Positions 2,276 through 63,600 of a stretch of 64,000 nucleotides of DNA are shown here, in pieces. Source of the DNA: an uncultured Gemmatimonadaceae bacterium (GTDB taxonomy: Bacteria; Gemmatimonadota; Gemmatimonadetes; Gemmatimonadales; Gemmatimonadaceae); NCBI GenBank assembly GCA_963781585.1, contig CAWAGQ010000007.1, positions 256,001 to 320,000 on the forward strand, read 5' to 3'. The stretch's first letter is position 1. Each line of letters opens with the position of its first letter. The position numbers were made by a program, and so were the translations under genes. The notes below the pieces were generated by a model. That model was not told the origin of the DNA. It worked only from the letters and a program-made list of their open reading frames with translations, and made no database searches.

Positions 2276-3492
2276 GGAAGCTCTGCACAGGGTGCTGCGT
2301 GGACGGCATGCATGAGTGATCGACTGGTTAGGCGGATAACAGGGTTGGGGCGACGCCCGGTTCGGATCGGTCCCGACCATCGGTTGGCGTGCGGCGGCTC
2401 CGTCGCGAGTGCGCGGGAGGTCTTACGTCAGGCATGGGCGGAATCCTCGGGGGAGCAAGCGGCGCCGCATCCGATAGAGATTGGCCAACCCGAACATGGT
2501 GTACGCACGCGCCGCATTCTTCGCGAGACCGCGGTACCGCACTTTCATGAAGCCCCAGAGGTATTTCACCACCTGAAAGGGATGCTCCCCGAGGGCCCGG
2601 CACTGGGACCGCGTCCGGTTGACTGCCTTCTGGTGCGGGGTCAGCGGGTGTGTCGTCGTGCCGCGCCGGTTCACCCGATAGGTCCCACCTGAGAGCTGCC
2701 ACTGCTGGCGATGATCTTCCTTCCAATAGGCTTGATCCCCGTAGACCACCCGCTCCGTCCCGAGCAGCAAGGCCGGCAGTTGGGTGATATCCGCCACCGC
2801 GGCATCCGTCGCGATCACGTGGTGCACCACCCCGTGCGTGTCGGTCCCCACGTGGAGTTTCATCCCGAAGTGCCACGACTTGCCCTTCCGGGTCTGGCGC
2901 ATCTCGGGATCCCGCGCCTTGTCGGCGTTCTTCGTCGACCCCGGCGCCGCGATGATCGTCGCATCCACGATCGTCCCCGCCTTCAAGAGCAACCGTTTCT
3001 CCGCCAACAGCGCGCGGATCTCGGCGAAGATCGCTTCCGTGAGCTGATGCCGCTCCAAGAGGTGCCGGAACCGCAGGATGGTGGTCTCGTCCGGGATCAC
3101 GTCCTCGCCCAACTCCACCCCGGCGAAGCGCCGCATCGACTCACTATCATAGATGGTGTCCTCGGCCTGCGGATCGGACAAGTTGAACCACTGCTGCAGA
3201 AAGTAGACGCGCAACATCCGCTCCAGCCCGATCGGCTGCCGGCCGTTGCCGGCCTTCGGGTAATGCGGGGCAATCACCGCGAGCAGCCGCTGCCAGGGGA
3301 TGACGGCGTCCATCTCCGCAAGAAAGCGTTCGCGCCGCGTCACCCGTCCCTTCATACTCCACGCCATCGACGCCAAGGTCCGCTGCTGTCCCATGGGAAG
3401 GCCTCCGATACGGGAACCAACCGGTCAGGAGATCACGCCTCGCCTAACGAGACAGCAATATAGCATCATTCCTTCACTTGTGCAGAGTTTCC
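2276..3492 (-). mobile_element. IS5-family insertion sequence, 1217 bp, apparently intact
   Basis: Terminal inverted repeats GGAAGCTCTGCACA (2276-2289) and TGTGCAGAGTTTCC (3479-3492), 13/14 match; CTAG target duplication at 2272-2275 and 3493-3496; single transposase ORF. Confidence 0.95.
2423..3394 (-). CDS. IS5-family DDE transposase
   Basis: RRERFLAEMD, LQQWFNLSD, IVDATII, HFGMKLHVG, YGDQAY, KVRYRGLAKN motifs. Confidence 0.95.
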   Translation of the reverse strand: MGQQRTLASMAWSMKGRVTRRERFLAEMDAVIPWQRLLAVIAPHYPKAGNGRQPIGLERMLRVYFLQQWFNLSDPQAEDTIYDSESMRRFAGVELGEDVIPDETTILRFRHLLERHQLTEAIFAEIRALLAEKRLLLKAGTIVDATIIAAPGSTKNADKARDPEMRQTRKGKSWHFGMKLHVGTDTHGVVHHVIATDAAVADITQLPALLLGTERVVYGDQAYWKEDHRQQWQLSGGTYRVNRRGTTTHPLTPHQKAVNRTRSQCRALGEHPFQVVKYLWGFMKVRYRGLAKNAARAYTMFGLANLYRMRRRLLPRGFRPCLT

Positions 3493-3849
3493 CTAGGAGT
3501 GGCCAGCTACCTCACTCGGCATGCACGCCTTCCCGCCTTCGGCGCGCTGCCCCCGGCTGGCACGGCTTGGGGGCTGCATTCGCGGAGCGCCCGCTCCTCG
3601 AATCAAGCGAATCTCGCAGCACGGCGGGGATCGCGAAGTCCTCCAGGCCCCCCGGTTTCTGTCAGGGAGTCGCCGCATTGGTTAGCTTCCGGTTCTCGCC
3701 TGGCCCGCGTTTCGGCCCTGGAAGACGCATCCTTCAGCCCCTTTGGGAGCGCCTGACCTGCTGAGGGTAGTTTGCCTACAGACGCACTGCACGGCCGCCG
3801 GTAGGCTGCGTTTGTCAAGGCGAGACGTCGTCTACGGAGAGGAGGTCAT

Positions 3850-4461
3850 ATGATCAGAATCCGCGACATCATGACCAGGGAAGTGGTCAGCGTCAGTCCC
3901 GACCTTTGCATTCGGGACGCCATGGACCTGCTCTCCTCACGGCATCTGAGTGGCGTCCCTGTGCTGGAGGGGCGTGAGGTGGCAGGTGTGGTGACCGGCA
4001 CCGATCTGATGGCCTTCGCCGCGGGACTTCCCGGCACGCCGGTGGAAAGGGAGGTGTTCGAGGAGGCGGAGGAGGAAGAGGACGCCTCGAGCGAGATGGA
4101 CGAAGACGACGTGGAATCCAGTGGCTCGTATTTCACGGAGATGTGGTCTGATGCCGGGGCTGACGTGGACGTCCGGTTCGCCAACGTGTCGGGACCAGAG
4201 TGGAATGCTCTGGATGAGCACACGGTCTCTGAGGCGATGACCCGCTCGCCGATCATCAAGCTGCCGCCCGATACGCCGGTTGAGGCCGCCGCCGCGTTCA
4301 TGAAGGAGCACGGCGTGCACCGGGTGCTGGTCACCGACGGGCCGACGTTGCTCGGCGTCGTGACGGTAACGGACGTGTCGAACGCGGTGGCCGAGCACAA
4401 GCTCACCAGTCGCACGTACGTGTTCGGCAAGGACCGCCGGTTCGACAACCGGGGATGGTGA
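3850..4461 (+). CDS. CBS domain pair protein with acidic insert
   Basis: Two CBS repeats (DIMTREVVSVSPD; EAMTRSPIIKLPPD...GVVTVTDV); RBS GAGGAGG. Confidence 0.85.
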   Translation: MIRIRDIMTREVVSVSPDLCIRDAMDLLSSRHLSGVPVLEGREVAGVVTGTDLMAFAAGLPGTPVEREVFEEAEEEEDASSEMDEDDVESSGSYFTEMWSDAGADVDVRFANVSGPEWNALDEHTVSEAMTRSPIIKLPPDTPVEAAAAFMKEHGVHRVLVTDGPTLLGVVTVTDVSNAVAEHKLTSRTYVFGKDRRFDNRGW

Positions 4462-4941: not shown

Positions 4942-5242
4942 GACCCACCTCCCGCACGGACAACGGTCCGCACCCTGACATGATGCAGCCCCTGGCGCTG
5001 CCCAGCAATCGGGGAATGTACGGAGCGTTGCTGACGAACCGCTGATGCAGCGGAACGATCGCGATCTCCTTCCGTGAACGCGTGCGTTCTCCCTGACGCG
5101 TCGGGGTGCTTGGTCCGACAGACAAAGGACACTGGCGCGTTGCACCTTGACTCCGCATGAAGGGGGCCGGGCCCCACCGTCGCGCCGCGGCGGTGACCTA
5201 ACGCCCGGCCCGGAGCCGAGCCTGGACTGGCCAGGAGGAACG

Positions 5243-7452: not shown

Positions 7453-7467
7453 GGAGCGACGCCTCAC

Positions 7468-7623: not shown

Positions 7624-10119
7624 TCAGGTATCCGTCCGCAGCACGGTCATCGGGCTCACCCGGGTCGCCTTCCACGACGGCAACGCCGCCGCGCCGATGG
7701 TGACGGCGAGGAGCATCGCGGCCGCGATCGCCGCGCTGGCCGGCTCGCGCGCGGGAATCTGGAACAGCACGGCCTGGGCGAGCGGGGCCGCCGCTTCCGC
7801 GATCACCAGCCCGATCAGCACCCCCGCCCCCGCCATGCGCAAGGCGTCGCCCACCACCAGTCGCGCCACCGCGCGGCTCCCGCTGCCTAACGCGATACGC
7901 ACGCCGATCTCAGGGGTGCGCTGCCTGACGAGATACGACACCGCGGCAAACAGGCCGACGGCCGCGATCCCGAGCGCCAGCACCCCGAACACCGAGAACA
8001 GCGTCGCCCCCAGACGCCACGACCGGAGTTGCGGATCGATCAGGTCCTGGTACGGACGCACCCGCGCGTACAGCGGCACGCGACCGGTGCTCTGGACGAT
8101 CCGCTGCACGGGCAGCGTCAGCCGGTCGGGCAGGCCGCGGGTCTCGACCAGCAGAGCGTGCACCATCGACGGATCGGGACCGGGCGATGACGGAAGCTGC
8201 TCGAAGGGGACATAGTACTGCATCAACCTGTCCTCGCCACCGCCGGCCCGTAGCGATCGCGCCCGCGAATCGCGCACCACGCCGACGACCTGCCGGCAGG
8301 GAAGTGATGCCGCCGCCGCCATCGGGTCGCCCTCGAACGAGGCCCCGTACCCCGCGCGCACACAGCGCCCGATCGGGCTCTCTCCGGGCCACGCCGTGCG
8401 TGCCATCGTCTCGTTGACCAGGACCACCGGTGGTGCGCCGCGTCCGTCGGCATCGGTAATGAGCCGTCCCTCGATCAACCGGACCCCCATCATCGCGAGG
8501 TACTTCGCGGTGGCGCCGTACATGATCGGGAGTTGCTGTACGTTCGGTGGCGGCAGCACGTACCCGGGAATGTTGATGGGCGGAATGTGGTGCGATGAGA
8601 ACGGCATCCCCTGCACGACGGTCGCCGCGGCCACGCCGGGCACCGCCTCGATCCGCCCGACCGCGTCTTGGTACGCCGCATCGCTCTCGACGCCGTGGAG
8701 CTGCCCGCGGAAATCCAGCGTGACGTACAACAGATGCGCCGTGGAAAAACCAAGGTCCTGCGATCGCACCCGCTGCAGACTCCGCACGAACAGCGCCGCT
8801 CCCACGAGCAGGACCATGCTCAGCGCCAGCTGCACCACGATCAGCAGGCGCTGGAGCACGAATCGGCCCGACGATCCGTGCCCTCCGCCGGCGCGCAGAT
8901 CGGCCAGCACGTCGTGCCGGCCGATCTGCGCAAGCGGGCCCACACCCGCGAGGATCCCCGCGCCGCAGGCCGTGAGAATCGACACCCCCAGCATCCCCCG
9001 GCTCGCCATCGACGCAGACAGCGCCAAATTGGGCAGCAACGTGACCCGGACCACCTGGTCGAACCAGCGGCCCAGTACCAGACCCGCGACCGCACCGGCC
9101 ACCGCCAGCAGCACGCTCTCGACCAGCGCCTGCCTGACGAGATGCCCGCGGCCGGCGGCGAGTGCGAGGCGCACCGCCTGATCGCGCCGCTTGCGCGCCG
9201 CACGAAGCTGGAGCAGCGTGCCGACGTTGGCGGTGGCGATGAGCAACACGACCAGCGACACCCCGGAGAGCCAGAGGGCAATCTGTCCCTGGGCAGACTG
9301 CCGCGCTTCCCGGCCCGGGACGACGGATTCCAGCGGCACCGCTGAGAGATTGTCGTTCACCAGGCCCGTGGCATCGGCGCGCAGCGTTGAGGCGACCATC
9401 GCCCCGGCGGCAGGCGCGGTGACGCCCTGACGCAGACGCCCCACGACCGACACCACGTGCATGCCCGGGTTGCTCCACCAGAACGCATCGTGCGAGCGAG
9501 ATGCGGTGGTCAAGGGGACGAACAGGTCGACCGGAGCGAGGTCGGTACCGGTGAAGCCGCGCGGGGTCACGCCCACGACCGTCAGCGTCTGCCCGTCCAC
9601 AACGAGATGAGTCCCGATCGCCGCGACGTCGCCCCCGAACCGGCGCTGCCAGTACGCATAACTGACCACGACGACGTCGTTGCCGCTGGGGAACTCGTCG
9701 TCCGAGGGACCGAGCAGACGTCCGGCCGCGGGACTGACGCCAAGCATGGCGAAATAGCGTCCCGACGTCTCTACCACGGCAACCTCGGCAAGGTCGGCGC
9801 CGACGCCAACCGTCAGTGTGTCCGCGCGCACCGCCGCCACGGCGTCGAACGCCGCGGCGGTGGTGACCGCCTGAAAGAGCGGATACGATGTGGTGGAAAG
9901 CGTGTACGGCGGTCCGTCTTCAGCTTTGAACGTGAGCGAGAGACGCACCACGCGCTCGGGGTCGCGGATGCCGGGCGGCGATGCAAACATCAGTTGATCG
10001 ACCAGCCCGAACATGGACGTATTCGCGCCGATGGCGAGCGCGAACGTGAGCACGGTTCCGGCCACGAAAGCCGGTTCGCGCCGGAACGCGCGCAGGGCGA
10101 ATCGCAAGTCGCGCAGCAT
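7624..10119 (-). CDS. ADOP-family duplicated orphan ABC permease (MacB/FtsX domains)
   Basis: MLRDLRFALR, LAIGANTSMF, VQLALSMVLLVGAALF, RTPEIGVRIALG, RVSPMTVLRTD. Confidence 0.9.
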   Translation of the reverse strand: MLRDLRFALRAFRREPAFVAGTVLTFALAIGANTSMFGLVDQLMFASPPGIRDPERVVRLSLTFKAEDGPPYTLSTTSYPLFQAVTTAAAFDAVAAVRADTLTVGVGADLAEVAVVETSGRYFAMLGVSPAAGRLLGPSDDEFPSGNDVVVVSYAYWQRRFGGDVAAIGTHLVVDGQTLTVVGVTPRGFTGTDLAPVDLFVPLTTASRSHDAFWWSNPGMHVVSVVGRLRQGVTAPAAGAMVASTLRADATGLVNDNLSAVPLESVVPGREARQSAQGQIALWLSGVSLVVLLIATANVGTLLQLRAARKRRDQAVRLALAAGRGHLVRQALVESVLLAVAGAVAGLVLGRWFDQVVRVTLLPNLALSASMASRGMLGVSILTACGAGILAGVGPLAQIGRHDVLADLRAGGGHGSSGRFVLQRLLIVVQLALSMVLLVGAALFVRSLQRVRSQDLGFSTAHLLYVTLDFRGQLHGVESDAAYQDAVGRIEAVPGVAAATVVQGMPFSSHHIPPINIPGYVLPPPNVQQLPIMYGATAKYLAMMGVRLIEGRLITDADGRGAPPVVLVNETMARTAWPGESPIGRCVRAGYGASFEGDPMAAAASLPCRQVVGVVRDSRARSLRAGGGEDRLMQYYVPFEQLPSSPGPDPSMVHALLVETRGLPDRLTLPVQRIVQSTGRVPLYARVRPYQDLIDPQLRSWRLGATLFSVFGVLALGIAAVGLFAAVSYLVRQRTPEIGVRIALGSGSRAVARLVVGDALRMAGAGVLIGLVIAEAAAPLAQAVLFQIPAREPASAAIAAAMLLAVTIGAAALPSWKATRVSPMTVLRTDT

Positions 10120-10809: not shown

Positions 10810-11973
10810 ATGGCCGATACGCTCCGACCCCATGGTCTTGCCGACTCGATGGCATCTCTTCCCGTTCCGCCGCGTCTGTCGCGCGCCGCTCCGATCACGA
10901 TCGGAGTCGTCGCCATCGCCATCGTGACGTTCGGCGTACTGGTCGGCCCGGCGGCCGCGCCCCTCGTGTCGCGAGGCGCGCGGGCCTTCCCCCGTGTGCC
11001 CGGCCCGCCCGCCGACGCACGCGGTCTCCTCCGGGCGTTAGGCGTAGGCTCGGTCGCCTGGTACGCCTGCGCGGCCGCGCTGCCCGCGTGCTGGTGGCTG
11101 GCGCGGCGCCTGCCGCTCACCCTGCAGCGCGTCTGGCGCTCGCTCGTCCTGCAACTCGGTGCGGTGCTGGCGCTCATCGCCGTCACGTCATTGGTGCACT
11201 ACGCCGTGACGTATCACGGTGCGCCGTCGGCTCCGTCGTTCGGCTCGTTCGTACAGGTGGCGCTGGTGGCCAACGCCCTCCCGCTGCTCGCGGTCGCGGC
11301 GCTGGCGAACGTGTTCGAGGCCCGCCGGCGTGCGGTGCACGACGCGCTGGACGCCCAGCGGCTGCGGGCCGAGCTGGCAGAGTCCCGGCTGATCGCGGTC
11401 ACGTCGCAGCTGCAGCCGCATTTCCTGTTCAACACGCTCCAGAGCATCTCGACGCTCATTCATCGCGATCCGGTGGCGGCAGATGCGATGCTGGCCAGGC
11501 TGTCCGACCTGCTGCGCGATGTATTGCGGCGCTCCCACCGTGCGCTGGTACCATTCAGCGACGAGCTGCGGATGACGAAGACCTATCTCGAGCTGGCGCA
11601 GGTGCGGTTCGGGGATCGATTGCAGGTAACCATCGATGCGCCGGACGACGCACAACACGCGATGGTGCCGATCCTGCTGCTGCAGCCGCTGGTGGAGAAC
11701 GCGCTCAAGCACGGCGTGGGACGCCGGGCGGCAGGTGGATGCGTGGCGATTGTGGCGCGGAAGGCCGGGGACCGGTTGATCGTCACCGTGCGTGACGACG
11801 GCGCGGGCACCGACGAGATCGGGGGCGACGGCGAGGGCATCGGACTCGCCAATACCCGCGAACGGCTGCGACATGCCTTTGGTGACGACCAGTCGCTCGT
11901 GGTGCGCGAGCGCGCGGGCGGCGTGGAGGTCACGATCGACGTACCGATGCGCGTCGACACGCCCCCGGGCTGA
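10810..11973 (+). CDS. LytS/YehU-family sensor histidine kinase
   Basis: TM segments, QLQPHFLFNTL H-box, LQPLVENALKHG, DDGAG, GIGLAN; exact start uncertain (10810 or 10849). Confidence 0.92.
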   Translation: MADTLRPHGLADSMASLPVPPRLSRAAPITIGVVAIAIVTFGVLVGPAAAPLVSRGARAFPRVPGPPADARGLLRALGVGSVAWYACAAALPACWWLARRLPLTLQRVWRSLVLQLGAVLALIAVTSLVHYAVTYHGAPSAPSFGSFVQVALVANALPLLAVAALANVFEARRRAVHDALDAQRLRAELAESRLIAVTSQLQPHFLFNTLQSISTLIHRDPVAADAMLARLSDLLRDVLRRSHRALVPFSDELRMTKTYLELAQVRFGDRLQVTIDAPDDAQHAMVPILLLQPLVENALKHGVGRRAAGGCVAIVARKAGDRLIVTVRDDGAGTDEIGGDGEGIGLANTRERLRHAFGDDQSLVVRERAGGVEVTIDVPMRVDTPPG

Positions 11974-21849: not shown

Positions 21850-21923
21850 GCCGTCAGGCGGGCTGGTCCGGCGCGCCGTTAGGCCGGTCGGTCACGGCGC
21901 CGTCAGGCCGGTCTGTCCGCCGC
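21850..21923. repeat. Three imperfect 24-25 bp tandem repeats
   Basis: GCCGTYAGGC.GG...GTC units starting at 21850, 21875 and 21899. Confidence 0.55.
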
Positions 21924-23264: not shown

Positions 23265-24047
23265 TCAACCGGCGCCTCCCCATTCCTCGATGATCCTTCC
23301 CAGATCGACGCCGGGCGCGATCAGGCACACGTGTCCATGCCCTTCGAGAATCCGCAGTGACGCGCCCGGCACCCGGCCCGCCATGAACCTGGCCTGGCCC
23401 ACCGACGGCACGAGATGGTCGCGGTCGGCGGCGAGAAAGAGCGCCGGGACGCGAATGTCCGCCAGCCGATCACGCAGGTCGTACTCGGTCAGCATCCGCA
23501 GACGGTCCAGGTATCCTCGACGCGTCGTTAGGCGCGTTTCGGCCAGGAAGCGCCGGATCTCGAGGCGGTGCGTGTGCGGCGAGTGCATGCGGAAGGCCGT
23601 GAGCCGGCGCACCAGCGCCATCGCCCCCCACGGCATCATCCGGATTCCCGCGCGCGCCAGGTGCAGCCGCGCCTGCGGCAGAAACCGCGCGAAGGAATTG
23701 AGCACCACGATGCCCCGCAGGCGCCGGGGATGGGCCAGCGCGTAGCTCAGGGTCAGCGTGCCGCCGAACGATTCGCCCACGAGTACGGCGCGTTGGTCGT
23801 CGGCCGTCACCGCGCGCACGACGCGGTCCAGGTCCCCGACCAGCGCCTCCATGTGCGGCGCATCGTCGCGCAGCGCGTAGGTTACCACGCGAAAGCGGGG
23901 CGCGAGCAGTGGGACCTGGCGATAGAACAGGCGTCCGGTGCCGTCCATGCCCGGCACGTACACCAGCGGCGGACCGGTGCCCGCGATCTGCATCCCGGCG
24001 GGCGATGCCTGACTGGCGCCGCGGCTCGTGGAGGGCAATTCTTGCAT
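23265..24047 (-). CDS. Alpha/beta fold hydrolase
   Basis: PGMDG oxyanion loop, GESFGG, DRDHLV, GHGH; start is 24047 or 23993. Confidence 0.85.
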   Translation of the reverse strand: MQELPSTSRGASQASPAGMQIAGTGPPLVYVPGMDGTGRLFYRQVPLLAPRFRVVTYALRDDAPHMEALVGDLDRVVRAVTADDQRAVLVGESFGGTLTLSYALAHPRRLRGIVVLNSFARFLPQARLHLARAGIRMMPWGAMALVRRLTAFRMHSPHTHRLEIRRFLAETRLTTRRGYLDRLRMLTEYDLRDRLADIRVPALFLAADRDHLVPSVGQARFMAGRVPGASLRILEGHGHVCLIAPGVDLGRIIEEWGGAG

Positions 24048-24051: not shown

Positions 24052-24843
24052 ATGAAAGATATCGGCCGGACAATTCGGGTTGCCTGGGCGGTGGCGTCGT
24101 TCTTCGTGGTGCAGAGCGTGGTGTTCGGTCTGGCGGTCCTGCCCGGAGCCCTGTTCTGGCAGTGGCACCTGCAGTGGAGGCTGCCGTTTCTGTGGATGCG
24201 CATCGTCGTGCTGGCGATGGCGGTCATCCCCGCGTACCTGGTGTTCGCCCTGACCTTGATGGCGCTGTCGGCGTTGTCGATGCGCCTGTTCGGCTGGCGC
24301 ACCCCGCTCGACGCCGAGATGCGCATCGACGCTCTCGACTGGGCCCTGCTCGACTGGGCGCGCTATATGGTCGCCACCCAGATCGTCCGGGTGCTCGTCG
24401 GATCCCCATTCCGGGCCAGTCCGCTCTGGACCCTGTATCTCCGGCTCAATGGAGCGCGAATCGGACGGGGGGTGTATGTCAACACGGTGTCGATCGCCGA
24501 TCACAATCTGATCAAGATCGGCGATCACACCGTGGTCGGGGCGGGGGTCCACATGTCCGGGCACACCGTGGAAGGTGGTGTGGTGAAGACCGCCCGCCTA
24601 ACGATCGGGCGCGACGTGACCCTGGGAGTGGACGCGGTGGTCGGACTCGGCGTGGCGATCGGCGACCGCTGCCAGGTCGGCGCCATCACGTTCATCCCGA
24701 AATTCGCGCGGCTGCCGGCCGGAAAGACTTACGTCGGCATTCCCGCGCATCCGGTGGAAACGTCGGACCACGAGCCGGCCGCCTTGCAGTCGGGCGCGCA
24801 GGGGAGCGGCCCCCACTCAGGCGACCGGTCGGGCGTTGCCTGA
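24052..24843 (+). CDS. Membrane-bound hexapeptide-repeat (LbH) acyltransferase-like protein
   Basis: Two TM helices, YLRLNGARIGRGV, IGDHTVVG, IGRDVTLG, IGDRCQVG, YVGIPA. Confidence 0.8.
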   Translation: MKDIGRTIRVAWAVASFFVVQSVVFGLAVLPGALFWQWHLQWRLPFLWMRIVVLAMAVIPAYLVFALTLMALSALSMRLFGWRTPLDAEMRIDALDWALLDWARYMVATQIVRVLVGSPFRASPLWTLYLRLNGARIGRGVYVNTVSIADHNLIKIGDHTVVGAGVHMSGHTVEGGVVKTARLTIGRDVTLGVDAVVGLGVAIGDRCQVGAITFIPKFARLPAGKTYVGIPAHPVETSDHEPAALQSGAQGSGPHSGDRSGVA

Positions 24844-30998: not shown

Positions 30999-33395
<2,397 letters not shown>

Positions 33396-33419
33396 GCAGT
33401 CAGCCGGCCGGCAGCGGCC

Positions 33420-34604
33420 TCACCCGTCGACCGGCGCCGCCGCCCCGGACTTCTCGGCGGCATGCTCCAGCCGCAGCACCCCCAGCGCACCTAACGAGAT
33501 GAGCGCTCCGGCGGCGAAGGGCCACTTGAGGCTGCCGGCCCGGACCACCGCGCTGGCCAGGAACGGCCCCACCACCCGCCCGCTGGCGCTCGCGCTCTGA
33601 AACACGCCGAGCACCGCACCGCGCTCGGTGGGGCCCGCGGTCGCGGCCACCAGCGTGCTGATGCTGGGGACGAAGATCGCCCCGCCCACCGCGAACACCC
33701 CGAGCGGCAGGTAGGTCCCGGGGAGGGTGGAAGCAAAGAGGAGAAGAAACATCGACAGGGCACACAGCACGGCCCCGCCGCGGGTGAGGCCCCCCGCACC
33801 GAAGCGCCTGGTGAGCGGACCGATCCCGCCCCCCTGAATCGACACCGACACGATGCCGGTGACACCAAGGATCACGCCCAGCACCCTCGGTGTGACCCCG
33901 AGCGCCTCGGCGCTCCACACGACGAACGTGCTCTGGAACATCGCCACCCCGGCCACCACCAGCAGCGTTGCCGCCAGCAGCTCGCGCAGGACCGGCCGGT
34001 TCATGATCTGCCAGCGGCTCGGCCGCTTCTGCAGCCGGGCCTGGGCGCGGTGCTCGGCGCCGTGGCTCTCGCGCAGAAGAAACAGCGTGGCCGTGAACGC
34101 CAGGGCCGACATGATGGCGGCGGCGTGGGCCGTCCGGGCCAGGCTCCCACCGCTCTCGCCGGCGCCGGCCAGGATCCCACCTAACGCCGGACCGATGATG
34201 AAGCCGAGCCCGAATGCGGCGCCGAGCAGCCCGAGGGCGCGGGGCCGGGTGGCGTCGGTGGTGATGTCGGTGACGTAGGCGTAGGCGGTGGAGATGTTGC
34301 CGGCGGCGAGCCCGGCCGCCAGCCGCGCCGCCCCCAGCTCCCACCCGTTGACGGCCAGGGCCAGCGCCAGATTGGCCAGCGCGTTGCCGGCGAGCGTGAC
34401 CAGCAGCACCGGCCGCCGGCCGATCCGGTCGCTCAGCATCCCCCAGAGCGGAGAGCCGAACAGCTGGCCTAACGAGTAGAGGCCGAACAGGAAGACCACC
34501 AGCGACTCGGGGACGCCGAGCCGGGTGGCGAAGAACGGCAGCACCGGGATGATCATCCCGAAGCCGACCAGGTCGAGGAAGACGATGAAGAAGATGGTGG
34601 TCAT
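33420..34604 (-). CDS. MFS transporter, TetA/DHA1-like
   Basis: DLVGFGMIIPVLP, GMLSDRIGRRPV (motif A), GFIIGPALGG (motif C). Confidence 0.92.
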   Translation of the reverse strand: MTTIFFIVFLDLVGFGMIIPVLPFFATRLGVPESLVVFLFGLYSLGQLFGSPLWGMLSDRIGRRPVLLVTLAGNALANLALALAVNGWELGAARLAAGLAAGNISTAYAYVTDITTDATRPRALGLLGAAFGLGFIIGPALGGILAGAGESGGSLARTAHAAAIMSALAFTATLFLLRESHGAEHRAQARLQKRPSRWQIMNRPVLRELLAATLLVVAGVAMFQSTFVVWSAEALGVTPRVLGVILGVTGIVSVSIQGGGIGPLTRRFGAGGLTRGGAVLCALSMFLLLFASTLPGTYLPLGVFAVGGAIFVPSISTLVAATAGPTERGAVLGVFQSASASGRVVGPFLASAVVRAGSLKWPFAAGALISLGALGVLRLEHAAEKSGAAAPVDG

Positions 34605-34705: not shown

Positions 34706-38028
<3,323 letters not shown>

Positions 38029-38802: not shown

Positions 38803-39982
38803 ATGAAACGAAAGCCCCAGGGCCGATACATCCAAATCGCGACCGCCGGCGAAGTGGTGCGGGCGTTCGCGCCGGCGCCGCTGCCGCCCAAGCCGCCCAT
38901 CCAATGGACCCCGCGGCTCCGCGCTCGCTTCGACGCCGCGCTCCTCGCCCTCGGCCGCCTCGACGCCGTCACCGACCTCCTCCCTAACGCCGCGCTCGTC
39001 CTTTACAGCTTCGTCCGCAAGGAAGCGGTGCTGTCGTCGATGATCGAGGGCACGCAGTCCTCGCTCGCGGACCTGATGCTGCTCGAGGTCGACGAGGAGC
39101 CCGGCACCCCGATCGAAGACGCGCGCGAGGTGAGCCGCTACGTGGCGGCCCTCGAGCACGGCCTCAAACGCCTCCGTGGAGGTTCCCCCTCACGCTGCGA
39201 CTCCTGCGGGAGGTCCATCGAGTACTGCTCGGCACCAGCCGAGGCGGGACGGCGACGCCCGGCGAATTCCGGCGCAGCCAGGCGTGGATCGGCGGGACGC
39301 GCCCGGGCAATGCGTGTTCGTGCCGCCGCCGCCGAACGAGATTGCGGACTGTCTGACTCCACTCGAGCGCTTTCTCCACGACGAGCCCCATGTCACCCCG
39401 CCTCTCGTAAAGGCCGCGCTGGCGCACGTGCAGTTCGAGACCATCCATCCGTTCCTCGATGGCAACGGACGCGTGGGACGACTGCTCATCGCGTTGCAGT
39501 TCGCCCATGACGGTCTGCTCCGTCAACCGCTCCTGTACATCAGCCTGCACTTCAAGGAACACCGCAAGACCTATTATGACCTTCTTAATCGCGTACGAGA
39601 GGTCGGCGACTGGGAGGCCTGGCTCGAGTTCTTCGCCGAGGCCGTCGAGTTCAGCGCCCGGCAGGCCGGGGACTCCGCCAGACGACTGCTCGCCCTCGCC
39701 GCCGCTGACGCGCAACGCATCGAGAAGCTGGGCCGCCCCTCCACATCAGCCCTCGTGATCCATCGCGCGCTCCAGCGCCAACCGATCGTCAACGCGGCGG
39801 CGCTGGTGGCGGCGACCGGACTCACGCCGGCCACGGTCAACAAGTCGCTGGCCCATCTGGAGCGTATCCGTGTGGTCAGGGAACTCACCAGCAAGCAGCG
39901 AGGCCGCGTCTTCAGCTACGCGCGCTACACCGCCATTCTCAACGAAGGCATGGCGCTGCCCAAAGAGAGCGAACAGCGGTGA
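38803..39982 (+). CDS. Fic-family AMPylase, class II, with C-terminal HTH; frameshifts at about 39190 and 39310
   Basis: SSMIEG inhibitory motif, HPFLDGNGRVGR catalytic motif, C-terminal GLTPATVNKSL helix-turn-helix. Confidence 0.92.
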
Positions 39983-41577: not shown

Positions 41578-43228
41578 ATGGGCGAAACCCGCGTTGACCT
41601 CCTCCACCTCCTCGAGGACCTCGCCGACGCCTATCCGGGCGACCTCGAAGAGACGATCCTCACCGAGATCGTCGCCAATTCGCTCGATTCCGGTGCTGCC
41701 ACCATCGCCATCGCCGCCGACCCGGCGCAGGCCGCGCTCACGGTCCTCGACGATGGCCGCGGCATGCGGCGCGCGGAGCTGCGCCGCTTCCACGATATCG
41801 CGTCGAGCGCCAAGGAGCGCGGCGAGGGCATCGGCTTCGCCGGGGTCGGCATCAAGCTCGGTCTCCTGGTGAGCGATGAAGTGATCACCGAGACGCGGCG
41901 CGGCAAGGATCACGTCTGCACCACCTGGGCGCTCACCGGCCGCAAGCGCGCCCCCTGGCACTGGGTCGAGCCGCCCGGCCTGGTGAGCGAACGCGGAACC
42001 GCGGTACGGCTCCGCCTCCAGAATGCGCTTTCCCCGCTCCTCGATGCCGCGCTGATCGAGGGTGCGCTGCGGCGTCACTTTGAGCCGCTGTTCGACCCGT
42101 CCTTCGACGCCATCCTCCGCGCGCACTATCCGGACGGGGTCCGGTTTGTCGTCAACGACCGGAGCATGGAGCGCGCCCCCACCGCGTCCGGCGACGAGGC
42201 GCCGGTGGCGGTGCGACTGGGCCGCAAGCGCAAGCCCGCGGCGTCGGGCTTCCTCGTGCATCAGGCGGCGCCCCTCGGTGAAGAGCGCCGCGGCATCGCC
42301 ATCAGCACGTTCGGCAAGGTCATCAAACGGGGGTGGGACTGGCTCGGCGTGACGCCTAACGCGCCGGACATGGTGAGCGGCCTGATCGAGGCGCCCGGCC
42401 TCGCCGCCAGCCTGACGCTCAACAAGGCCGACTTCCTGCGGAGCGGCCCGCGCGGCGCCGTCTGGCTGTCGTACCGCAAGGCGCTGCAGGAGGCGGTAAC
42501 ACAGCAGCTCGCGGCGTGGGGCGATGCGCGCGACGGGCGAGGAGCACACCCGGCGTCGGGCGGCGCGTCCGGTGGAGCGCGACGTGGAGACGGTGCTGCT
42601 GGACCTCGCCGAGAGCTTTCCGATGCTGGCAATGCTCGTGGAGCGGCGGAGCGGCGGGCAGCGAAAGCTGGCCATGGGGCGCGCCGACGGCGCTGGTGGC
42701 GCACAGCCGCTGCTGCTGCCACCCGAGACTGGCCAGGGCGAGCCCGTCGTGATGCCGCCCGAGGCTCCTGATGCGGCGCCGCCGGCCGAGGTGCCTGACG
42801 AGACTCCGTCGCCCGCTGGTGACGAGGGAGCTGCACCGCGGCGCGTCGCCGAGGCGCCACCTGACGAGGAACAACCCGAGCAGGGGGCGTCGCACCCGGC
42901 GCCGATCGAGCTGCCGGCGCACCGGGGCCGGCGTCGGCCTACACGGCTTGGCCTGAGGATCCAGTTCGAATCGCGTCCCGGCGATCCGGAGCTGGGGCGG
43001 CTGGTGGAGACGACGGTCTGGGTGAACGACGCGCATCCGGCGTACCTGCGGGCGGCGGCGGCACGGTCCGAGTCGTATCACCTCGCGCTCGCGGTGGCGA
43101 TGGCGCTGGCGAGAGTGGCCGTGGAGCCGTCGCAGGAGCACGGCTTCGTCTCCGCGTTTCTCGGACGATGGGGCGAGGCCGCGGGGCATGGGAAGGGAAG
43201 TGGGAGACCACGGCGGCGGGGGAAGTAG
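41578..43228 (+). CDS. Stand-alone GHKL (HSP90/MutL/MORC-like) ATPase; frameshift at about 42530
   Basis: EIVANSLD, DDGRGM, GFAGVGIK, RGT boxes; Pro-rich linker; C-terminal VWVNDAHP. Confidence 0.82.
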
Positions 43229-44157: not shown

Positions 44158-44311
44158 CCCCGCCCCAGTCGGCCGCTGACAAGCAGCGACCTCGCGCCGA
44201 ACGTCGTCTATTCACCGCACCTAACGCTCCAGTAGCCCCTGCTTGGCGTTTCGCAAAGACTGATCGCGTGTTCCACCAGGCAGGGGGTAAGCCGTTGCGC
44301 GACGCCGAGCG

Positions 44312-53891: not shown

Positions 53892-54171
53892 GGCTCGCGG
53901 TCGCACGGGGCCCTGAGTTCAGGAGGGCCCTGGTTCTCCCCAGGCGGCGCGACCTGTCCGCCACTCCCATGCCGTCATCCCATCTCCGCGCCCTGGCTGG
54001 TGCACCGTCGAGCCCGCCTCCGCGTCGATGGTGACGATGTGAATCCGTGATCATTGCGGATCTTCCACCCTAACGTGTGCGCTCCGCCCTTGCGCGGCCG
54101 TGCATAACGGGTCCAAGGTGCGGCCCCGCACGACTCGGTCACCACGGGACGGCCAGGGCACCGAGAGCACC

Positions 54172-55827: not shown

Positions 55828-57719
55828 TCAGTTCCCCCGACTGGCGACCCGGGGCATATGCTTCCCGGCGTCCGGGGCGATGCGGGCCATCAGCGACCGG
55901 AAATGCGCCAGCCGGTCGGCGTGCGCCGCCGACAGGTCCGTCTGCTCCAGCGGGTCGCTCGCAAAGTCGAACAACTCTTCCTGCCCGCGATCGGACACGA
56001 TGTACTGACTGGTTCCGTCCACGATGGAGCGATATTCCCGCGCCCGAGCGGCCCTGTCGCGCTGATCCACGCGCAGGAAGGAATACACCGGCGCCGCCGC
56101 CGAATCGTCCCCGGTCCAGGTTCCCGCGAAGGACGGGCCGGGGAAGGGCGCTCCCGCTGACAGGCCAAGCAGGTCCACCGTGGTGGCGGCGAGATTCCCG
56201 GTCGACACCGGCGTGCCGACCTGGTCACCGGCGTGGCTCTCGTCAGGCAGCCGGACGATCAGCGGAACACGGATCGACGGAAGGTAGAGGCTGTGACCGT
56301 GCCAGTGGAATCCGTGCCCGCCGAACTCCTCGCCGTGGTCGCCGGCGATGACGACCATCGTGTTGCGGAGGAATCCCTCGCGCTCCAACGCATCGAGCAG
56401 GTGACCCACCTGTTCGTCCAGATACAGAATCGCCGCGTCGTAGCGATCCTTCGCGTCGGCTGTGGCGGCGCGCTGTGCCGGTTCCACGTCGACCGTGCTG
56501 TCTCCGTCCCATCGCTTCACCGGCGCCGGGCGTGGTCGCGGCATCGCTTCGATCCGCCGGATGTCCTCGTCGGGCGGCGCATACGGGTCGTGCGCGTCGT
56601 AGAAGTTCACGAATGCGAAGAACGGATGGCGGCGGTCCCGGCGCAGCCACCCCATCAGGTCGCGAATCACATCCGGCGCTACACGCCGGCCGTTCAGGAC
56701 ATGCGTCCAGAACCGCGTGTCCAGTGACGAGTGCTTTGCCGCCAGTGCCACCGCCAGACCGGGCGACGTGCTCGCGAGCGCATGGCCGAGGCTCAGTTCG
56801 TAGTCCTGGTAGTGCACGAAACCCCGCGCCAGCCCCCACTCGGAATTGCAGTAATAGAAGTTCCCGGCGATCCCTCCGGTGCGGTATCCGTGCGCGCTCA
56901 GGTATTCCGCCAGCGTGGGGAACCGCGCATCGAGCGGCTTCTCCCAGTCCGCGCTGAGCTCGTCGGGCGAGCGTCCGGTGAACATCGCGGCGTGTGACGG
57001 CAGCGTCCACGACGTGGCCGTGATCGCGTGGTCGAAGGTGATGCCGGTGCGCGCGAAGCGCTCCAGGTTCGGGGTCGTGGTTCGTGGATAGTCACCGAGA
57101 CTGGTGCTGTGCCACCGCATGGTGTCGAGGATGATCCACAACACGTTAGGCGCGCCAGAGGGAGCGGCCGGGAGGGCCGCCACTGCCCGCGCCTCGCGAA
57201 TCCGCCCGCCGATGTTGACCACCACGGTGCTGGCGATCACGGCTCCCACCAGCCACGGCGTGGTGCGACGCATGAGGCTGAACACCAGCGACGGCCGGCG
57301 CTGCGCGAGCGCCGCCATCTGTACCGCGATGCCCAGCGACAGCACGATCACCGACAGGTCGTGCAGCGCCTTCCCCCAGGTGAGCAACCCGCACGCGCTG
57401 CCGGCAACGGCCAGCACGAACACGATCATCCGGAGGGTCACCCGACGCGGAAAGCGCCGCGCCAGCACGGCCAGCAGCGCGCCCGCCGGAGGCCAAGCAG
57501 CACATACGTCACCGGCGACATCCAGACCACCTGTGGCGTGACGAGCGTCACCTGCCGAAGCGCGAACTTCTTGATGGCGTCGAGCCCGACGGCGCCGGTT
57601 CCGGTGACCAGACCGAACCAGGCGGCCATCCAGATGATGCGCCGCGCCGACAGCGGCGGGCTGGCGCGGACGCCGGCTCCTTTTCCGCTGAGTGCCTGGG
57701 CGATCGCAGCGACGCGAAT
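55828..57719 (-). CDS. Membrane-anchored sulfatase-superfamily enzyme, paralog of 15228-17033; frameshift at about 57490, start uncertain
   Basis: LDTMR, WTLPSHAAMFTG, FYDAHDPY, GDHGEEF. Confidence 0.85.
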
Positions 57720-60466: not shown

Positions 60467-60635
60467 GTTGTGCGGGTCGCCACCTCGTCCCCACGCTTTC
60501 GAATCAGATGCGGCACGGTGCGGATGGCGTCGCGGCACCAACAAGTGGGCGCGCCGAATCGCGGCAGCGGTGACGAGACGATATCTTTGCCACCTGACTC
60601 ATCCGGAGCGCCATCGTGGATTCCCCGTCTGCGGT

Positions 60636-63600
60636 ATGCCGTCGGTCGTGCCTCGCGGCATTGTGGGAATTCTTCTGTGGGGGACACCGGCTGTCGCGCA
60701 GTCGCCGTTCTCGTTCCTCCAGTGGCGTTCGATCGGTCCCGTGAACACCAGCGGGCGCGTGGACGATATCGCCGTGGCTCGTGTACGCGGCCAGGCGGAC
60801 GCGATCTACGTCGCCACCGCGTCGGGAGGGCTGTTCAAGAGCGCGAACAACGGCATTTCGTGGAAGCCGGTCTTCGACAGCGTGGACGCGATGATGTCCA
60901 TCGGCGCGGTGGCGGTGGCCCCGTCGTCGCCGCAGACGGTGTGGGTGGGAACCGGCGAAGCGAACACGCGTCAGAGCTCGAGCTGGGGCGACGGCGTCTA
61001 CCGCAGCACCGACGGGGGCGCCACCTGGACCACTGCCGGTCTCCGGGACACGCGACAGATCGGACGGATCGTCATCGATCCCACCGACCCGAACATCGTC
61101 TACGTCGCCGCCCAGGGGCACCTCTGGGGGCCTAACGAGGAACGCGGCGTCTTCCGGACAACGGACGCCGGGCGCACCTGGAAGAAGGTGCTGTACGTGG
61201 ACGAGAACACCGGGGCCAACGATCTGGTCATCGATCCGACCGATCCCGAGACCCTCTACGCCAGTACCTACCAGCGGCAGCGTCGCACCTGGGGCTTCAA
61301 CGGAGGCGGTCCCGGAAGTGCGATCTACAAGACCACCGACCGCGGCGCCACCTGGAACAAGCTCACCACCGGGCTGCCCTCCGGCGACAAGGGGCGGATC
61401 GGACTCGCCATCTATATGAGTGACCCGCGCGTCGTGTACGCCACGATCGAGGCCGCTCCGGCTGCTTCGGGTTCCACGGACGGACCCGGGATCTATCGCA
61501 CCCTCGATGGCGGAACGTCGTGGGAGAAGATCTCGAACCTGAACGTGCGGCCCAACTACTACTCCGAGATCCGCATCGACCCGCGGGACCGGGACCACGT
61601 CTACACCCTCGGCTCCAATCGCGGCTTCTACTTCTCGGATGACGGCGGGAAGACGTTCACGGAACTCTTCAGCAACGTCCACTCCGAGGACCACGCGTTG
61701 TGGGTCGATCCCGACGCACCCAATCACATGATCGTGGGCGGCGACGGCGGGATCTCCATCTCCTGGGATCGCGGGCGCACCTGGGATTTCCGGCGCAACA
61801 TGCCGATCGGCCAGTTCTACGAGGTCGACGTGGACAACAAGGTGCCGTTCACGATCTGCGGCGGGTTGCAGGACAACGGCGTGTGGTGCGTGCCGAGCGG
61901 CGTCCGGAACCGGAACGGCATCGCCGATCGCGACGCCTGGAACATCGGCGGCGGCGACGGCTTTCATGCGCACTTCGACCCCACCAATCCGTCGCTGGTC
62001 ATTCAGGAGTCGCAGAACGGCAACGTGGCCTGGGTGAACATCGGGACGCTGGAGCGACAGGGGGTCCGGCCCGGGAGTGGCGAGCCGCCTCCACCTCCGG
62101 CGCCCGGCGGCGGCCGCGGCGGAAGGGGAGCGGCGTCAGGCGGTCGCGGTGGAGGGGGAGGGGGAGGGGGCCGCGGCAGCGGATACCGCTGGAACTGGGA
62201 CACGCCCATCGTCAACTCACCGCATGATCCGGCAACCTGGTACATGGGAGCGCAGGTGCTCTTCCGGAGCAGGGATCGTGGCTCGAGCTGGACGAAAATC
62301 AGCCCCGACCTCACGCTCGACATCGATCGCGACACGCTGAAAATGATGGGCGCGGTGGTCGGTCCCACTGCGCTCTCCCGCAACGACGGGCAGTCCAACT
62401 ACGGGTCGATCACGTCGATTGGTGAATCGCCGGTGGACGCGCAGGTGATCTGGACCGGCAGCGACGATGGCCAGGTGCAGGTCACCAGAGACGGCGGCAG
62501 CACCTGGACCAACGTGACGTCACGCATCCCCGGAGTGCCGCCGCAGACCTACGTGAGCACGGTCCTGCCGTCGCGGTTCAAGGGGGGACGGATCTACGTC
62601 ACGTTCGACGGGCACTACATGGACGACTACAAACCCTATGTCTTCGTGAGCGACGACTTCGGCGCCACCTGGCGGTCGCTGGCGGCCGGACTTCCCGAGA
62701 CGTCCATCAATCGGATCCGCGAGCATCCGCGCAACCCCCGCGTACTGGTGCTCGCCCACGAGCGCGGCGCGCACTTCTCCAACGACGGCGGCGCGACCTG
62801 GATTCCGCTCACCACCAACCTGCCGACGGTTCCGGTGGACGACGCGGTATTCCAGGAGCGCGAGAACGCTCTCGTGCTCGGCACCCACGGCCGTGGCATC
62901 TGGGTGCTGGACGACGCCGGCCCGCTCGAGTCGCTGACGGCGGACGCGATGCGACGCGACGCCGTGTTGTTGCCGATTCCGCGCGCGTATCTGATGAGCA
63001 CGTTTTCGCCGCAGGCGTGGTACGGCTACGGGGAGTACTTCTCGCCCAATCCCGAGTGGGACGCGGTGATTTCGTACTACGCGGGCCACGGCGCGAGCGG
63101 CGTGGCGACGATCGTGGTGAAGGACGCGTCAGGAGCGACGATCCGGACGCTGGAGGGTCCGGTCGCGAAGGGCGTGAACCGCGTCGTCTGGGACCTTCGC
63201 CATGCACCGCCGGTCGACTCGGCCAACGTGCCGGCCGCCGGGGGACGGGGCGGGGGCGGAGGCGGGCGCGGCGCGCCATCGGGCGTGACCGTGGTTGGAT
63301 TCTCGGGCGGTGGAGGAGGCGGTCGCGGTAACGCGCCGCTCGGCCCACTCGTTCTTCCCGGGCGCTATGCCGTCAGCGTCCGGGTTCCGGGAGTCACGGC
63401 GCCGCTCACCGGGAGCGTAAGCGTCGAAGCCGATCCGTTGACGCACATGTCGAACGCGGACCGACTGGCGCGGCAGGCCGTCCTCATGCGCATTTACTCG
63501 TGGACGAAAGCGTTAGGCGAGGCGCGTGTCGCGGCGAGAGCGCTGATGGGTCAGCGCGACTCGATCCGGGCGGACTTCCTGGGAGGCGGCACCGCCGATG

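Follow-up and report, generated by a model that had tools for sequence, protein, structure and literature searches.

A recurrent word in the window

The 64,000-nt stretch of Gemmatimonadaceae DNA analysed here (the window) carries 21 copies of the heptamer CCTAACG, 13 on the + strand and 8 on the - strand. An earlier note, made from the sequence alone, had listed these copies, and every position and strand proved exact. The preceding base (-1) is G in 14 copies (GCCTAACG), A in 5 (ACCTAACG) and C in 2 (CCCTAACG), which confirms the extension to RCCTAACG that the note had counted in 19 of 21. Fourteen copies lie inside genes, 2 form stop codons and 5 are in intergenic DNA; their flanks have no extended similarity in common.

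The intergenic copies are GCCTAACG at 3443..3449 (+), 48 nt from an IS5-like transposase gene (2423-3394, -); ACCTAACG at 5197..5203 (+), between divergent CBS and BON genes whose starts are uncertain; GCCTAACG at 21877..21883 (-), within a threefold tandem repeat of 24-25 bp (21846-21926); ACCTAACG at 44220..44226 (+); and CCCTAACG at 54069..54075 (+), between an ADOP permease and a RibD_C gene. In the tandem repeat, the units other than the motif-bearing one have CGTCAGG. Both stop codons come from GCCTAACG: the copy at 33390..33396 (-) gives the TAG stop of a Ser/Thr kinase-TPR gene (30921-33395, +; CGT-TAG-GC, frame F), and that at 37394..37400 (-) would end a poorly supported ORF (37396-37752, -; GCC-TAA-CG, frame E).

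Eight genic copies read nCG-TTA-GGn on the sense strand (frame A). GCG-TTA-GGC (A-L-G) is found at GCCTAACG copies in an ADOP/MacB-FtsX permease gene (7624-10278, -; antisense copy at 7886..7892, +), a LytS-type histidine kinase ORF (9457-11973, +; 11036..11042, -), the Ser/Thr kinase-TPR gene (32488..32494, -) and a BNR/Sortilin gene (60390-63896, +; antisense copy at 63511..63517, -). ACCTAACG at 26608..26614 (+) is antisense in a P-type Ca-ATPase gene (26439-29108, -), with sense GCG-TTA-GGT (A-L-G). Three antisense copies fall in one MFS transporter gene (33420-34604, -): ACCTAACG at 33490..33496 (+; TCG-TTA-GGT, S-L-G) and 34180..34186 (+; GCG-TTA-GGT), and GCCTAACG at 34468..34474 (+; TCG-TTA-GGC). 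Four sense copies read CCT-AAC-G (frame B): CCCTAACG in a Fic_N ORF (38803-39510, +; 38983..38989, +; CCT-AAC-GCC, P-N-A), and GCCTAACG in an HATPase_c_3 gene (41578-42771, +; 42355..42361, +; CCT-AAC-GCG), a sulfatase gene (55828-57759, -; 57144..57150, -; CCT-AAC-GTG) and the BNR/Sortilin gene (61131..61137, +; CCT-AAC-GAG). The last two, both sense GCCTAACG copies, read C-CTA-ACG (frame C; CGC-CTA-ACG, R-L-T) in an alpha/beta hydrolase gene (23265-24326, -; 23526..23532, -) and a hexapeptide-transferase ORF (24028-24843, +; 24597..24603, +). The codon contexts quoted in the note at 7886, 11036, 32488, 23526 and 24597 were correct. Several genes of the window appear split. Frame statistics throughout were obtained with our own crude gene caller, with a Pfam check for the window calls only.

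Overrepresentation and lineage range

The mononucleotide expectation for CCTAACG in the window is 7.1, as the note had estimated (about 7), and Markov models of order 1, 2 and 3 give 2.7, 1.5 and 2.3. None of 100 dinucleotide-preserving shuffles reached 21 copies (mean 2.53, sd 1.47, maximum 7). The heptamer ranks first among the 7-mers of the window under the order-3 model. It is also the top 7-mer under a synonymous-codon shuffle that preserves proteins and codon usage, with 13 genic copies against 0.95; another run, of 300 shuffles, gave a mean of 0.87 and a maximum of 4. CCTAACG was the top word in two independent sets. CTAA/TTAG is otherwise scarce, as the note had remarked: the motif accounts for 21 of the 39 such tetramers. 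The mismatch variants that the note had named for comparison show no enrichment (CCTAACC 2, CCTAAGG 0, CCTTACG 0), and the only one-mismatch variants above expectation in the window are CCTGACG (39 against ~18) and CATAACG (7 against 1.4-2.6). The motif thus withstands both tests by which the note proposed to refute it, the comparison with high-order Markov and codon-shuffled models and the comparison with single-mismatch variants. The overrepresentation is confirmed, and it is stronger than first stated.

GCCTAACG also occurs in three independent Gemmatimonadaceae MAG loci: L007 (13 copies against 0.4 expected, in 11.4 kb), L010 (5 against 0.4) and L001 (3 against 0.7). The cultured Gemmatirosa kalamazoonensis has 403 copies in 600 kb; three 50-kb stretches of it hold 32, 28 and 36, against ~0.5 each, and the base at -1 is always G. 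The word was not found in five other Gemmatimonadota loci and stood at background level in 72 loci from other phyla. The closest homologs of the window's ATPase carry Gemmatimonadaceae or Longimicrobiales names, which agrees with a Gemmatimonadota lineage. A clade of Gemmatimonadaceae keeps the word at 0.13-1.1 copies per kb. The note's claim that the motif acts at the level of DNA, belongs to one lineage and is imposed on genes is supported. The heptamer that the note took as the unit is real, but the full word is an octamer: GCCTAACG is a double-stranded DNA word with CCTAACG as its core, and it reads RCCTAACG in the window's lineage.

Reading frames and effect on proteins

The word takes in 8 of the 10 TTA codons found in the window gene calls and 51 of the 61 in 150 kb of Gemmatirosa. 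In Gemmatirosa, every open frame exceeds its codon-shuffled null (observed/expected: A 51/1.8, B 26/1.3, C 4/0.1, D 5/0.1), and the occupied fraction of protein-compatible sites is 51/201, 26/51, 4/78 and 5/129, respectively. The frame skew in this sample tracks peptide and codon availability. In the small sets (window, L007, L010 and L001), frames C and D showed no significant enrichment. The note's description of the motif as frame-independent was overstated: all six frames are used, but nCG-TTA-GGC and CCT-AAC-G dominate. Stop codons of called genes are also recruited, 28 of 53 TAA and 19 of 91 TAG falling inside the word. In frame C of Gemmatirosa the ratio of CTA to CTG is 4:11, against a background of ~5:1873. 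The maintaining force works on the entire word and not on one codon, peptide or base.

At motif sites, Gly or Leu stands in place of the residues of homologs, and the replaced amino acids lie at variable positions. At the Ca-ATPase site at 26608, the encoded A-L-G is what most of 40 homologs have (A in 39, L in 30, G in 31). Tripeptides of the form PN[VADEG] reach 2.66x expectation (0.98x in motif-less loci) and [SPTA]LG 1.42x (1.03x). The word thus overrides codon preference, provides stop codons and sometimes alters amino acids. No motif position is common to the ATPase homologs (0 of 11), which fits motif turnover.

Spacing, orientation and strictness

Copies are spaced more regularly than random (CV 0.857, against 0.979 +/- 0.047 and a minimum of 0.86 in 1000 randomisations). 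Both orientations occur: the window has 13:8 and 11 segments of a Gemmatirosa replicon together have 190:223, and the note's argument against a strictly polar, KOPS-type signal holds. By hand count, 133 of 230 copies have CGTTAGG on the G-rich strand, a mild bias; orientation within genes is 168:105, and motif versus gene orientation is 33:65 for presumed leading-strand and 31:36 for lagging-strand genes. The ~58:42 strand split is largely accounted for by gene orientation.

Position 1 of the solitary word in Gemmatirosa must be G; position 8 is G in 311 copies, A in 38, T in 9 and C in 6. One-mismatch variants are mostly at expectation, with four exceptions: GCCTAACA (last base; 38 against 3.2), GCCTAACT (9 against 2.0), GCCTAACC (6 against 1.4) and GCCCAACG (at T; 75 against 34.3).

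Identity with the integron attC R-box

The note knew of no described function for the motif. As a sequence, the word has been described: it is the inverse-core/core site (R box) of integron attC sites, whose R''/R' consensus is given as RYYYAAC/GTTRRRY (PMC12901181), to which GCCTAAC/GTTAGGC conforms. Plasmid 1 of Gemmatirosa carries 81 contiguous attC sites that end in GCCTAACG, together with an intI gene (TIGR02249, 423 bits; cut-off 265); this integron element appears in the IntegronFinder 2.0 paper. Left attC ends in the array are GCCTAACG in 26 of 83 cases and GTCTAACG and GGCTAACG in 14 each; right ends are CGTTAGGC in 28 of 83. The modal R-box of the clade's attC sites is the same word, and in Gemmatirosa the octamer closes both ends of the attC hairpin. 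What is strict in the solitary word of Gemmatirosa is the 7-bp box itself. Lone attC sites lie away from the array at L083 4966 and at L093 30953 and 31733.

The copies in the window differ from attC boxes in being solitary, with no inverted partner at 50-150 bp, L boxes or cassettes, and in lying in ordinary genes with homologs in other lineages. No attC was found in the window (best covariance-model match, E = 0.23), nor any integrase domain in a Pfam scan of 55 window ORFs. The solitary word is also much stricter: in Gemmatirosa, GTCTAACG and GGCTAACG occur as solitary sites 2 and 0 times, against 3.5 expected for each, and the exact word 311 times. By our arithmetic, a random octamer contains RYYYAAC or GTTRRRY in ~0.4% of cases. 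We read the coincidence as a real link, in either direction: the large attC array may have seeded a recognition specificity, or a driven word may have drawn attC ends toward itself.

Candidate explanations

Our best guess, a tentative one drawn from sequence statistics, is that a USS/DUS-type molecular drive maintains the word. Some DNA-handling machinery would favour DNA bearing GCCTAACG, in the simplest form through a preference for kin DNA at uptake, with homologous recombination thereafter, and word-creating mutations would then fix more often than word-destroying ones in every place that the protein allows. Uptake sequences (USS in Pasteurellaceae, DUS in Neisseriaceae) are likewise short non-palindromic words, at about 0.3-1 per kb and in both orientations, chiefly genic, strongly biased in reading frame and with a family-level range; the difference at -1 resembles a dialect at one edge. 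According to Findlay and Redfield (2009, PMC2817400), they show reading-frame bias, roughly double the tripeptides that they encode and are located at poorly conserved residues. One orientation is preferred in genes (PMC2346458), as in the 168:105 seen here. The Gemmatimonadaceae word differs from them in phylum and sequence, in favouring frames that take the rarest codons and not preferred ones, and in coinciding with a recombinase site. To our knowledge, uptake sequences are confined to two proteobacterial families. No literature pairing Gemmatimonad* with 'DNA uptake sequence' was found, though in two papers Gemmatimonadetes co-occur with terms for competence or uptake. Counting against the drive are the scarce one-mismatch variants in Gemmatirosa (a further difference from USS/DUS), the mild strand bias and the behaviour of frames C and D in the small sets; moreover, uptake alone leaves the R-box identity unexplained. 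The main rivals are an integrase-linked and a repair-driven role.

An integron-integrase network is possible but doubtful. Solitary words would be double-stranded R-boxes bound or nicked by IntI or a related tyrosine recombinase, serving as cassette landing or exit points or as raw material for new cassettes. The consensus match, the array with its intI, the 7-bp core and the lone attC sites all fit. Cassette ORFs often run into R'', and 28 of 484 called genes close with GCC-TAA-CG in the same manner. Cassette insertion by IntI into genomic sites is described in a preprint (10.1101/2022.09.11.507474), but there GWT alone is required. Array boxes are loose, yet the variants that they allow show no enrichment among solitary sites; intragenic sites would be harmful targets, there is no known way for a recombinase to fix thousands of sites, and the window lacks both attC and, in the ORFs scanned, an integrase domain.

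Repair of the HIP1 type, in which a modification enzyme would mark the word and very-short-patch-like repair would convert near-matches, appears rather unlikely. HIP1 (GCGATCGC) of cyanobacteria is also a hyper-abundant, lineage-specific octamer, genome-wide in all frames and intergenic DNA, and its statistics agree (~1 per kb, rare codons imposed). Elhai reportedly found in 2015 that HIP1 deviations are edge-biased, and the enriched Gemmatirosa variants at the last base (GCCTAACA) and at T (GCCCAACG) resemble those; in the small sets, enrichment seemed limited to frames with a synonymous T. In the larger set, however, several positions are driven when synonymous, as the CTA:CTG ratio of frame C illustrates, so that single-position repair is insufficient. 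CCCAACG shows no depletion. HIP1 is a palindrome tied to known methyltransferases, whereas the present word is asymmetric; we know of no established function for HIP1.

A Chi-like recombination hotspot read by RecBCD, AddAB or AdnAB machinery is improbable. Like Chi and KOPS/AIMS, the word is an asymmetric 7-8-mer overrepresented on chromosomes (one copy per 3 kb of the window), with a G/T-rich reverse complement and a slight G-rich-strand excess. Chi and KOPS/AIMS are strongly co-oriented with replication, whereas polarity here is weak, leading- and lagging-strand ratios barely differing, and the split is largely a matter of gene orientation. Enrichment of at least 100-fold and amino-acid replacements go well beyond what is usual for Chi. 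Equally hard to credit is a binding site for some abundant protein that organises the nucleoid or the chromosome, with each copy kept by selection: regular spacing, both orientations and presence in coding and non-coding DNA are in its favour, but per-site selection would be too weak to establish rare codons and altered residues across thousands of copies, and we know of no nucleoid protein with an 8-bp site this strict at such density. The idea that codon usage, a peptide motif, a repeat family or faulty assembly produced the word, for which [A/S]-L-G at 8 of 14 genic copies and the split-looking genes might speak, is already refuted by the codon-shuffled null, the dissimilar flanks, the recurrence in short-read MAGs of different projects and one finished genome, and the presence of the word in both orientations, in intergenic DNA and at stop codons.

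Significance

One family of soil bacteria, the Gemmatimonadaceae, carries GCCTAACG in its genes far beyond chance. The word resembles the self-recognition tags of a few other bacteria and doubles in this family as the end mark of integron gene cassettes; what is new is the identity of an iterated chromosomal word with the attC R-box, the core site of integrons.

An over-represented word in the window

The heptamer CCTAACG (reverse complement CGTTAGG) occurs 21 times in the window, 13 times on the forward and 8 times on the reverse strand, at exactly the positions that the earlier note had picked out by eye. This corresponds to a density of 0.33/kb. Dinucleotide shuffles of the window yielded 2.53 +/- 1.47 copies with a maximum of 7, none of the 100 reaching 21, and the expectation was 1.5-2.7 under Markov models of orders 1-3 and 7.1 under a mononucleotide model. 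CCTAACG ranks first among all window 7-mers under the order-3 model. It is also the top 7-mer under a synonymous-codon shuffle (n=300) that preserves every protein and the codon usage gene by gene, where 13 genic copies were found against 0.87 expected and a maximum of 4 in 300; the excess asserted in the earlier note thus survives both kinds of null. It also withstands the comparison with single-mismatch variants proposed there: no comparable excess was seen among the 21 one-base changes, with CCTGACG (39 vs about 18) and CATAACG (7 vs 1.4-2.6) as the exceptions.

The base preceding the 21 copies is G in 14, A in 5 and C in 2, and the base following is C in 12, A in 6, T in 2 and G in 1. Nothing in common was found in the flanks beyond this one base per side, so CCTAACG is a word and not a repeat element; its full form is the octamer GCCTAACG.

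Several other repeats were recorded in the window. A one-base variant of the octamer, GCATAACG, is dispersed in seven copies (20028, 30039, 32097, 35773, 54102, 54526 and 59546; expected 0.5-1.4), at least four of which seemingly encode His-Asn (CAT-AAC) at a place where the complete word would demand Pro. CCT|GAC|G is enriched in the window lineage only (8 vs 2.2). An intergenic unit of 24-25 bp is repeated three times at 21846-21926, with the motif in one unit (21877) and CGTCAGG in the consensus. The P-type ATPase gene is closely followed downstream, at 26279-26421, by a tandem array of the 14-bp unit AGGTCAAAGGCCAG (10.2 copies, 89% matches), to which the excess of GGCCTTTG and AGGTCAAA in the window is due.

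Genes were called with a simple codon log-odds caller, the calls being corrected by Pfam in the window only. The window proved to be ordinary Gemmatimonadota accessory DNA, encoding ADOP permeases, a LytS/LytTR pair, sulfatases, a P-type ATPase, a Ser/Thr kinase, an MFS transporter and BNR proteins. An IS5-family transposase (DDE_Tnp_1 plus DUF772) on the minus strand at 2423-3394 contains no motif, the copy next to it being located 48 nt outside. Some genes give the impression of being split: overlapping ORFs at 38803-39982 carry Fic_N and Fic domains, adjacent ORFs at 40302-41506 carry AAA_14 and DUF4143, an ADOP permease apparently spans two ORFs at 51295-53891, and an ORF at 6016-7584 shows MacB_PCD alone. 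Frameshifts, pseudogenes or sequence errors could be the cause.

Distribution of the word among lineages

Named homologs of the window ATPase belong to Gemmatimonadaceae, Gemmatimonas, Longimicrobiales or Longimicrobium; the best two are 94% and 90% identical and the next at most 59%. A genome scan with the ATPase alignment provided at least 80 loci from many phyla, 8 of them from Gemmatimonadota, and among the matches listed the closest to the window had 55% identity. The word is present in the window, is enriched in three MAG loci labelled 'Gemmatimonadaceae bacterium' (L007, 13 copies in 11.4 kb or 1.1/kb, all GCCTAACG; L010, 5 copies; L001, 3 copies) and in the cultured Gemmatirosa kalamazoonensis KBS708, and has zero copies in five other Gemmatimonadota loci of 10-23 kb each (L002, L006, L008, L009 and L058), a distribution read locus by locus. 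The 72 loci of other phyla hold 36 copies in total vs about 69 expected (hand sum). When the three MAG loci were pooled, CCTAACG reached 20 copies against 0.92 under the codon-shuffled null, and only the overlapping GCCTAAC ranked ahead (22 vs 0.94).

The two KBS708 megaplasmids were found by tblastn against a plasmid collection, and fourteen stretches of 50 kb were sampled, thirteen on plasmid 1 and one on plasmid 2. Each stretch holds about 28-39 copies vs about 0.5 expected. The octamer occurs 403 times in 600 kb of Gemmatirosa (0.67/kb), excluding the main integron array; G precedes every copy in the first three stretches and nearly every copy in the remainder, and in one stretch (L083) GCCTAAC reaches 38 vs 0.91.

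Two candidates for an alternative word in motif-less loci were rejected: the excess of CTGCAGAA in L009 was traced to a repeated protein domain, and that of CTGTTCCA in L006 looks codon-derived. Within the MAG loci, CCCTTGACC and AAGGGTCAA occur 6-7 times each in L010 (0.1-0.4 expected) and are probably another short repeat. L007 carries ATGCCCAAC, a one-base variant of the octamer behind ATG, five times (1455, 3826, 7310, 10541 and 10953; 0.14 expected).

Effects on codons, stop codons and proteins

The 14 intragenic copies in the window fall 8, 4 and 2 in the frames nCG|TTA|GGn (A), CCT|AAC|G (B) and C|CTA|ACG (C), a split that does not bear out the frame independence claimed in the earlier note. 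Two further copies provide stop codons, one reading CGT-TAG-GC (33390) and the other, for a weak ORF, GCC-TAA-CG (37394), and five are intergenic. By the window gene calls, 8 of 10 TTA codons lie within the word.

Gemmatirosa shows the same word on a larger scale. By unchecked gene calls, 174 of its 403 copies are in frame A, 104 in B, 14 in C and 19 in D, with 92 outside called genes. Stop codons account for 47 of these 92, and the word holds 28 of the 53 TAA stops and 19 of the 91 TAG stops. All open frames exceed the codon-shuffled null in 150 kb (A, 51 vs 1.8; B, 26 vs 1.3; C, 4 vs 0.1; D, 5 vs 0.1). Occupied sites make up 25%, 51%, 5% and 4% of the protein-compatible sites in frames A to D, against a null of 1.21, 0.54, 0.06 and 0.01 sites. 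Occupancy is therefore far over the null in each frame, the odds of the word being two to three orders of magnitude higher throughout. The uneven use of frames reflects the frequency of A-L-G and P-N and the rarity of the codons required.

A mutational hotspot at a single position (C to T at the T of CC_RACG, e.g. by 5mC deamination) was considered, since the window and the three MAG loci seemed enriched only where that base is synonymous; one-offs of the form C|CTG|ACG are unconverted in all four. It was rejected on the larger Gemmatirosa set, in which the enrichment extends to frames C and D and CTA replaces CTG.

The word also alters proteins. In ATPase homologs, motif sites bear Gly or Leu in place of the Ala, Pro or Glu of relatives, and 0 of 11 motif positions are common to different lineages. 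PN[VADEG] tripeptides reach 2.66x expectation in Gemmatirosa vs 0.98x in motif-less loci, and [SPTA]LG tripeptides 1.42x vs 1.03x.

Orientation is near-balanced, at 190:223 over 11 Gemmatirosa segments, and 133 of 230 CGTTAGG copies (about 58%) lie on the G-rich strand, as counted by hand against GC skew by segment. Relative to the gene, motif orientation runs 33:65 for genes on the presumed leading strand and 31:36 for those on the presumed lagging strand (counted by hand), and most of the G-rich-strand excess follows from gene orientation. An apparent plus-strand bias of non-genic copies (10 of 10 in the first three Gemmatirosa segments) was discarded, as the larger set gave 66:74 and many of these copies are stop codons. 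Spacing in Gemmatirosa is more even than random (CV 0.857 vs 0.979 +/- 0.047). In L091, a stretch of Gemmatirosa plasmid 1, an FtsH-family protease gene on the minus strand (4521-6694) apparently lies in two ORFs, with a motif copy in the junction region (5557).

Identity with the integron core site

The consensus of the attC boxes, RYYYAAC for R'' and GTTRRRY for R' as given in a passage of PMC12901181, is matched by GCCTAAC and GTTAGGC, so that the word is, unexpectedly, identical with the integron core site. Gemmatirosa plasmid 1 carries at 810.8-856.2 kb small co-oriented ORFs, between which lie hairpin sites, about 97 bp long, opening with GCCTAACG and closing with CGTTAGGC. A covariance model trained on 15 of these sites identified 83 attC sites in the plasmid stretches L091 and L093, of which 81 are contiguous and form a complete integron (L091 10839 to L093 6168; NZ_CP007129.1, about 810.8-856.2 kb). 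The intI gene (L093 6827-7786, minus strand; TIGR02249, 423 bits) abuts the array and is co-oriented with the cassette ORFs. Sites beyond the contiguous 81 lie at L093 30953, L093 31733 and L083 4966, plasmid 2 holding one. Rfam gave 0 hits on L091, with no family matching attC. That this 1.1-Mb replicon of Gemmatirosa bears a large integron is noted in the IntegronFinder 2.0 paper. At L083 5338-5356, the upstream edge of a lone cassette, GGCTAAC and GTTAGGC form an R''/R' pair 4 nt apart (separated by GAAT), which looks like an attC with its central part deleted.

A cassette ORF array next to intI was seen only in Gemmatirosa L091 and L093, whereas the window copies lie within ordinary genes. 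These copies have none of the features of attC, namely an inverted R''/R' pair 50-150 bp apart, L boxes and extrahelical bases, and the sole close pair, 33390 (-) and 33490 (+), is in the wrong order for R''/R'. The best covariance-model hits in the window had E = 0.23 and 0.26, and none of the 55 window ORFs scanned with Pfam showed an integrase domain, so the window copies are solitary. The view that they are attC sites or relics was rejected on the covariance-model search and the absence of flank conservation.

The boxes of attC are loose, with GCCTAACG in 26 of 83 and GTCTAACG and GGCTAACG in 14 each, whereas solitary Gemmatirosa sites are strict (311 of the exact word vs 2 for GTCTAACG and 0 for GGCTAACG). 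The contrast speaks against the tolerance of the integrase being all that determines the genome-wide word.

What maintains the word

The iterated octamer is a DNA-level, whole-word and lineage-restricted feature that reshapes codon usage, stop codons and peptides, and we infer a molecular drive behind it. Biased DNA uptake of the USS/DUS kind ranks first among the candidates and is a tentative choice. Like USS and DUS, short words over-represented hundreds-fold at about 1 per kb, the octamer reaches 0.33, 0.67 and 1.1/kb in the window, Gemmatirosa and L007; it occurs in both orientations without replication polarity; and it is frame-biased in coding sequence, inflates its own peptides and falls on variable residues (compare PMC2817400). 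Its properties are those given for uptake sequences in PMC2817400 and PMC2346458.

An integrase-linked role comes next and is rather unlikely: the core-site identity suggests it, and the strictness of the solitary sites speaks against integrase tolerance as its sole basis. Somewhat less probable still is a repair or methylation drive like that of HIP1, the cyanobacterial iterated word. The octamer's properties agree with those of HIP1 as well; HIP1-type words are palindromes, whereas this one is non-palindromic. A Chi-like role is improbable, as Chi and KOPS are strongly co-oriented with replication and the word is not, to judge by GC skew, and a binding site for a nucleoid protein seems just as improbable. 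An artefact is next to impossible. A long-read basecalling error at a methylated site, an idea that the split genes had prompted, was rejected since short-read MAGs and a finished genome carry the word too.

Significance

To our knowledge, only a handful of lineages have hyper-iterated words that a drive maintains, namely USS, DUS and HIP1, and such words show how DNA uptake, repair or recombination shape genomes and proteomes. A full-text literature search found no prior genomic description of the present word, though papers outside its scope may hold one, and none that joined Gemmatimonad* with 'DNA uptake sequence'. The word adds a case from Gemmatimonadota, a soil-abundant and little-studied phylum, and is directly testable because a cultured strain with a finished genome carries it. 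It can serve as a lineage marker for binning Gemmatimonadaceae DNA, and it accounts for unusual codon choices (TTA, CCT, TAA stops) that could lead gene callers astray.

Its identity with the core site offers a handle on what seeds word specificity and on how cassettes and attC sites arise. A bolder reading, for which we see only a small chance, is that the octamer is a third independent 'self-DNA' word at the level of a family, with no earlier case outside Proteobacteria, and that it is mechanistically tied to integrons, both marking kin DNA genome-wide and closing every cassette's attC hairpin. Were that so, cassettes would preferentially pass from kin to kin. An R''-like GCC-TAA-CG already terminates about 6% of ordinary genes; provided that solitary sites are open to the recombinase, the Gemmatirosa genome would be a natural workshop for new cassettes, which would bear on the origin of integron cassettes.
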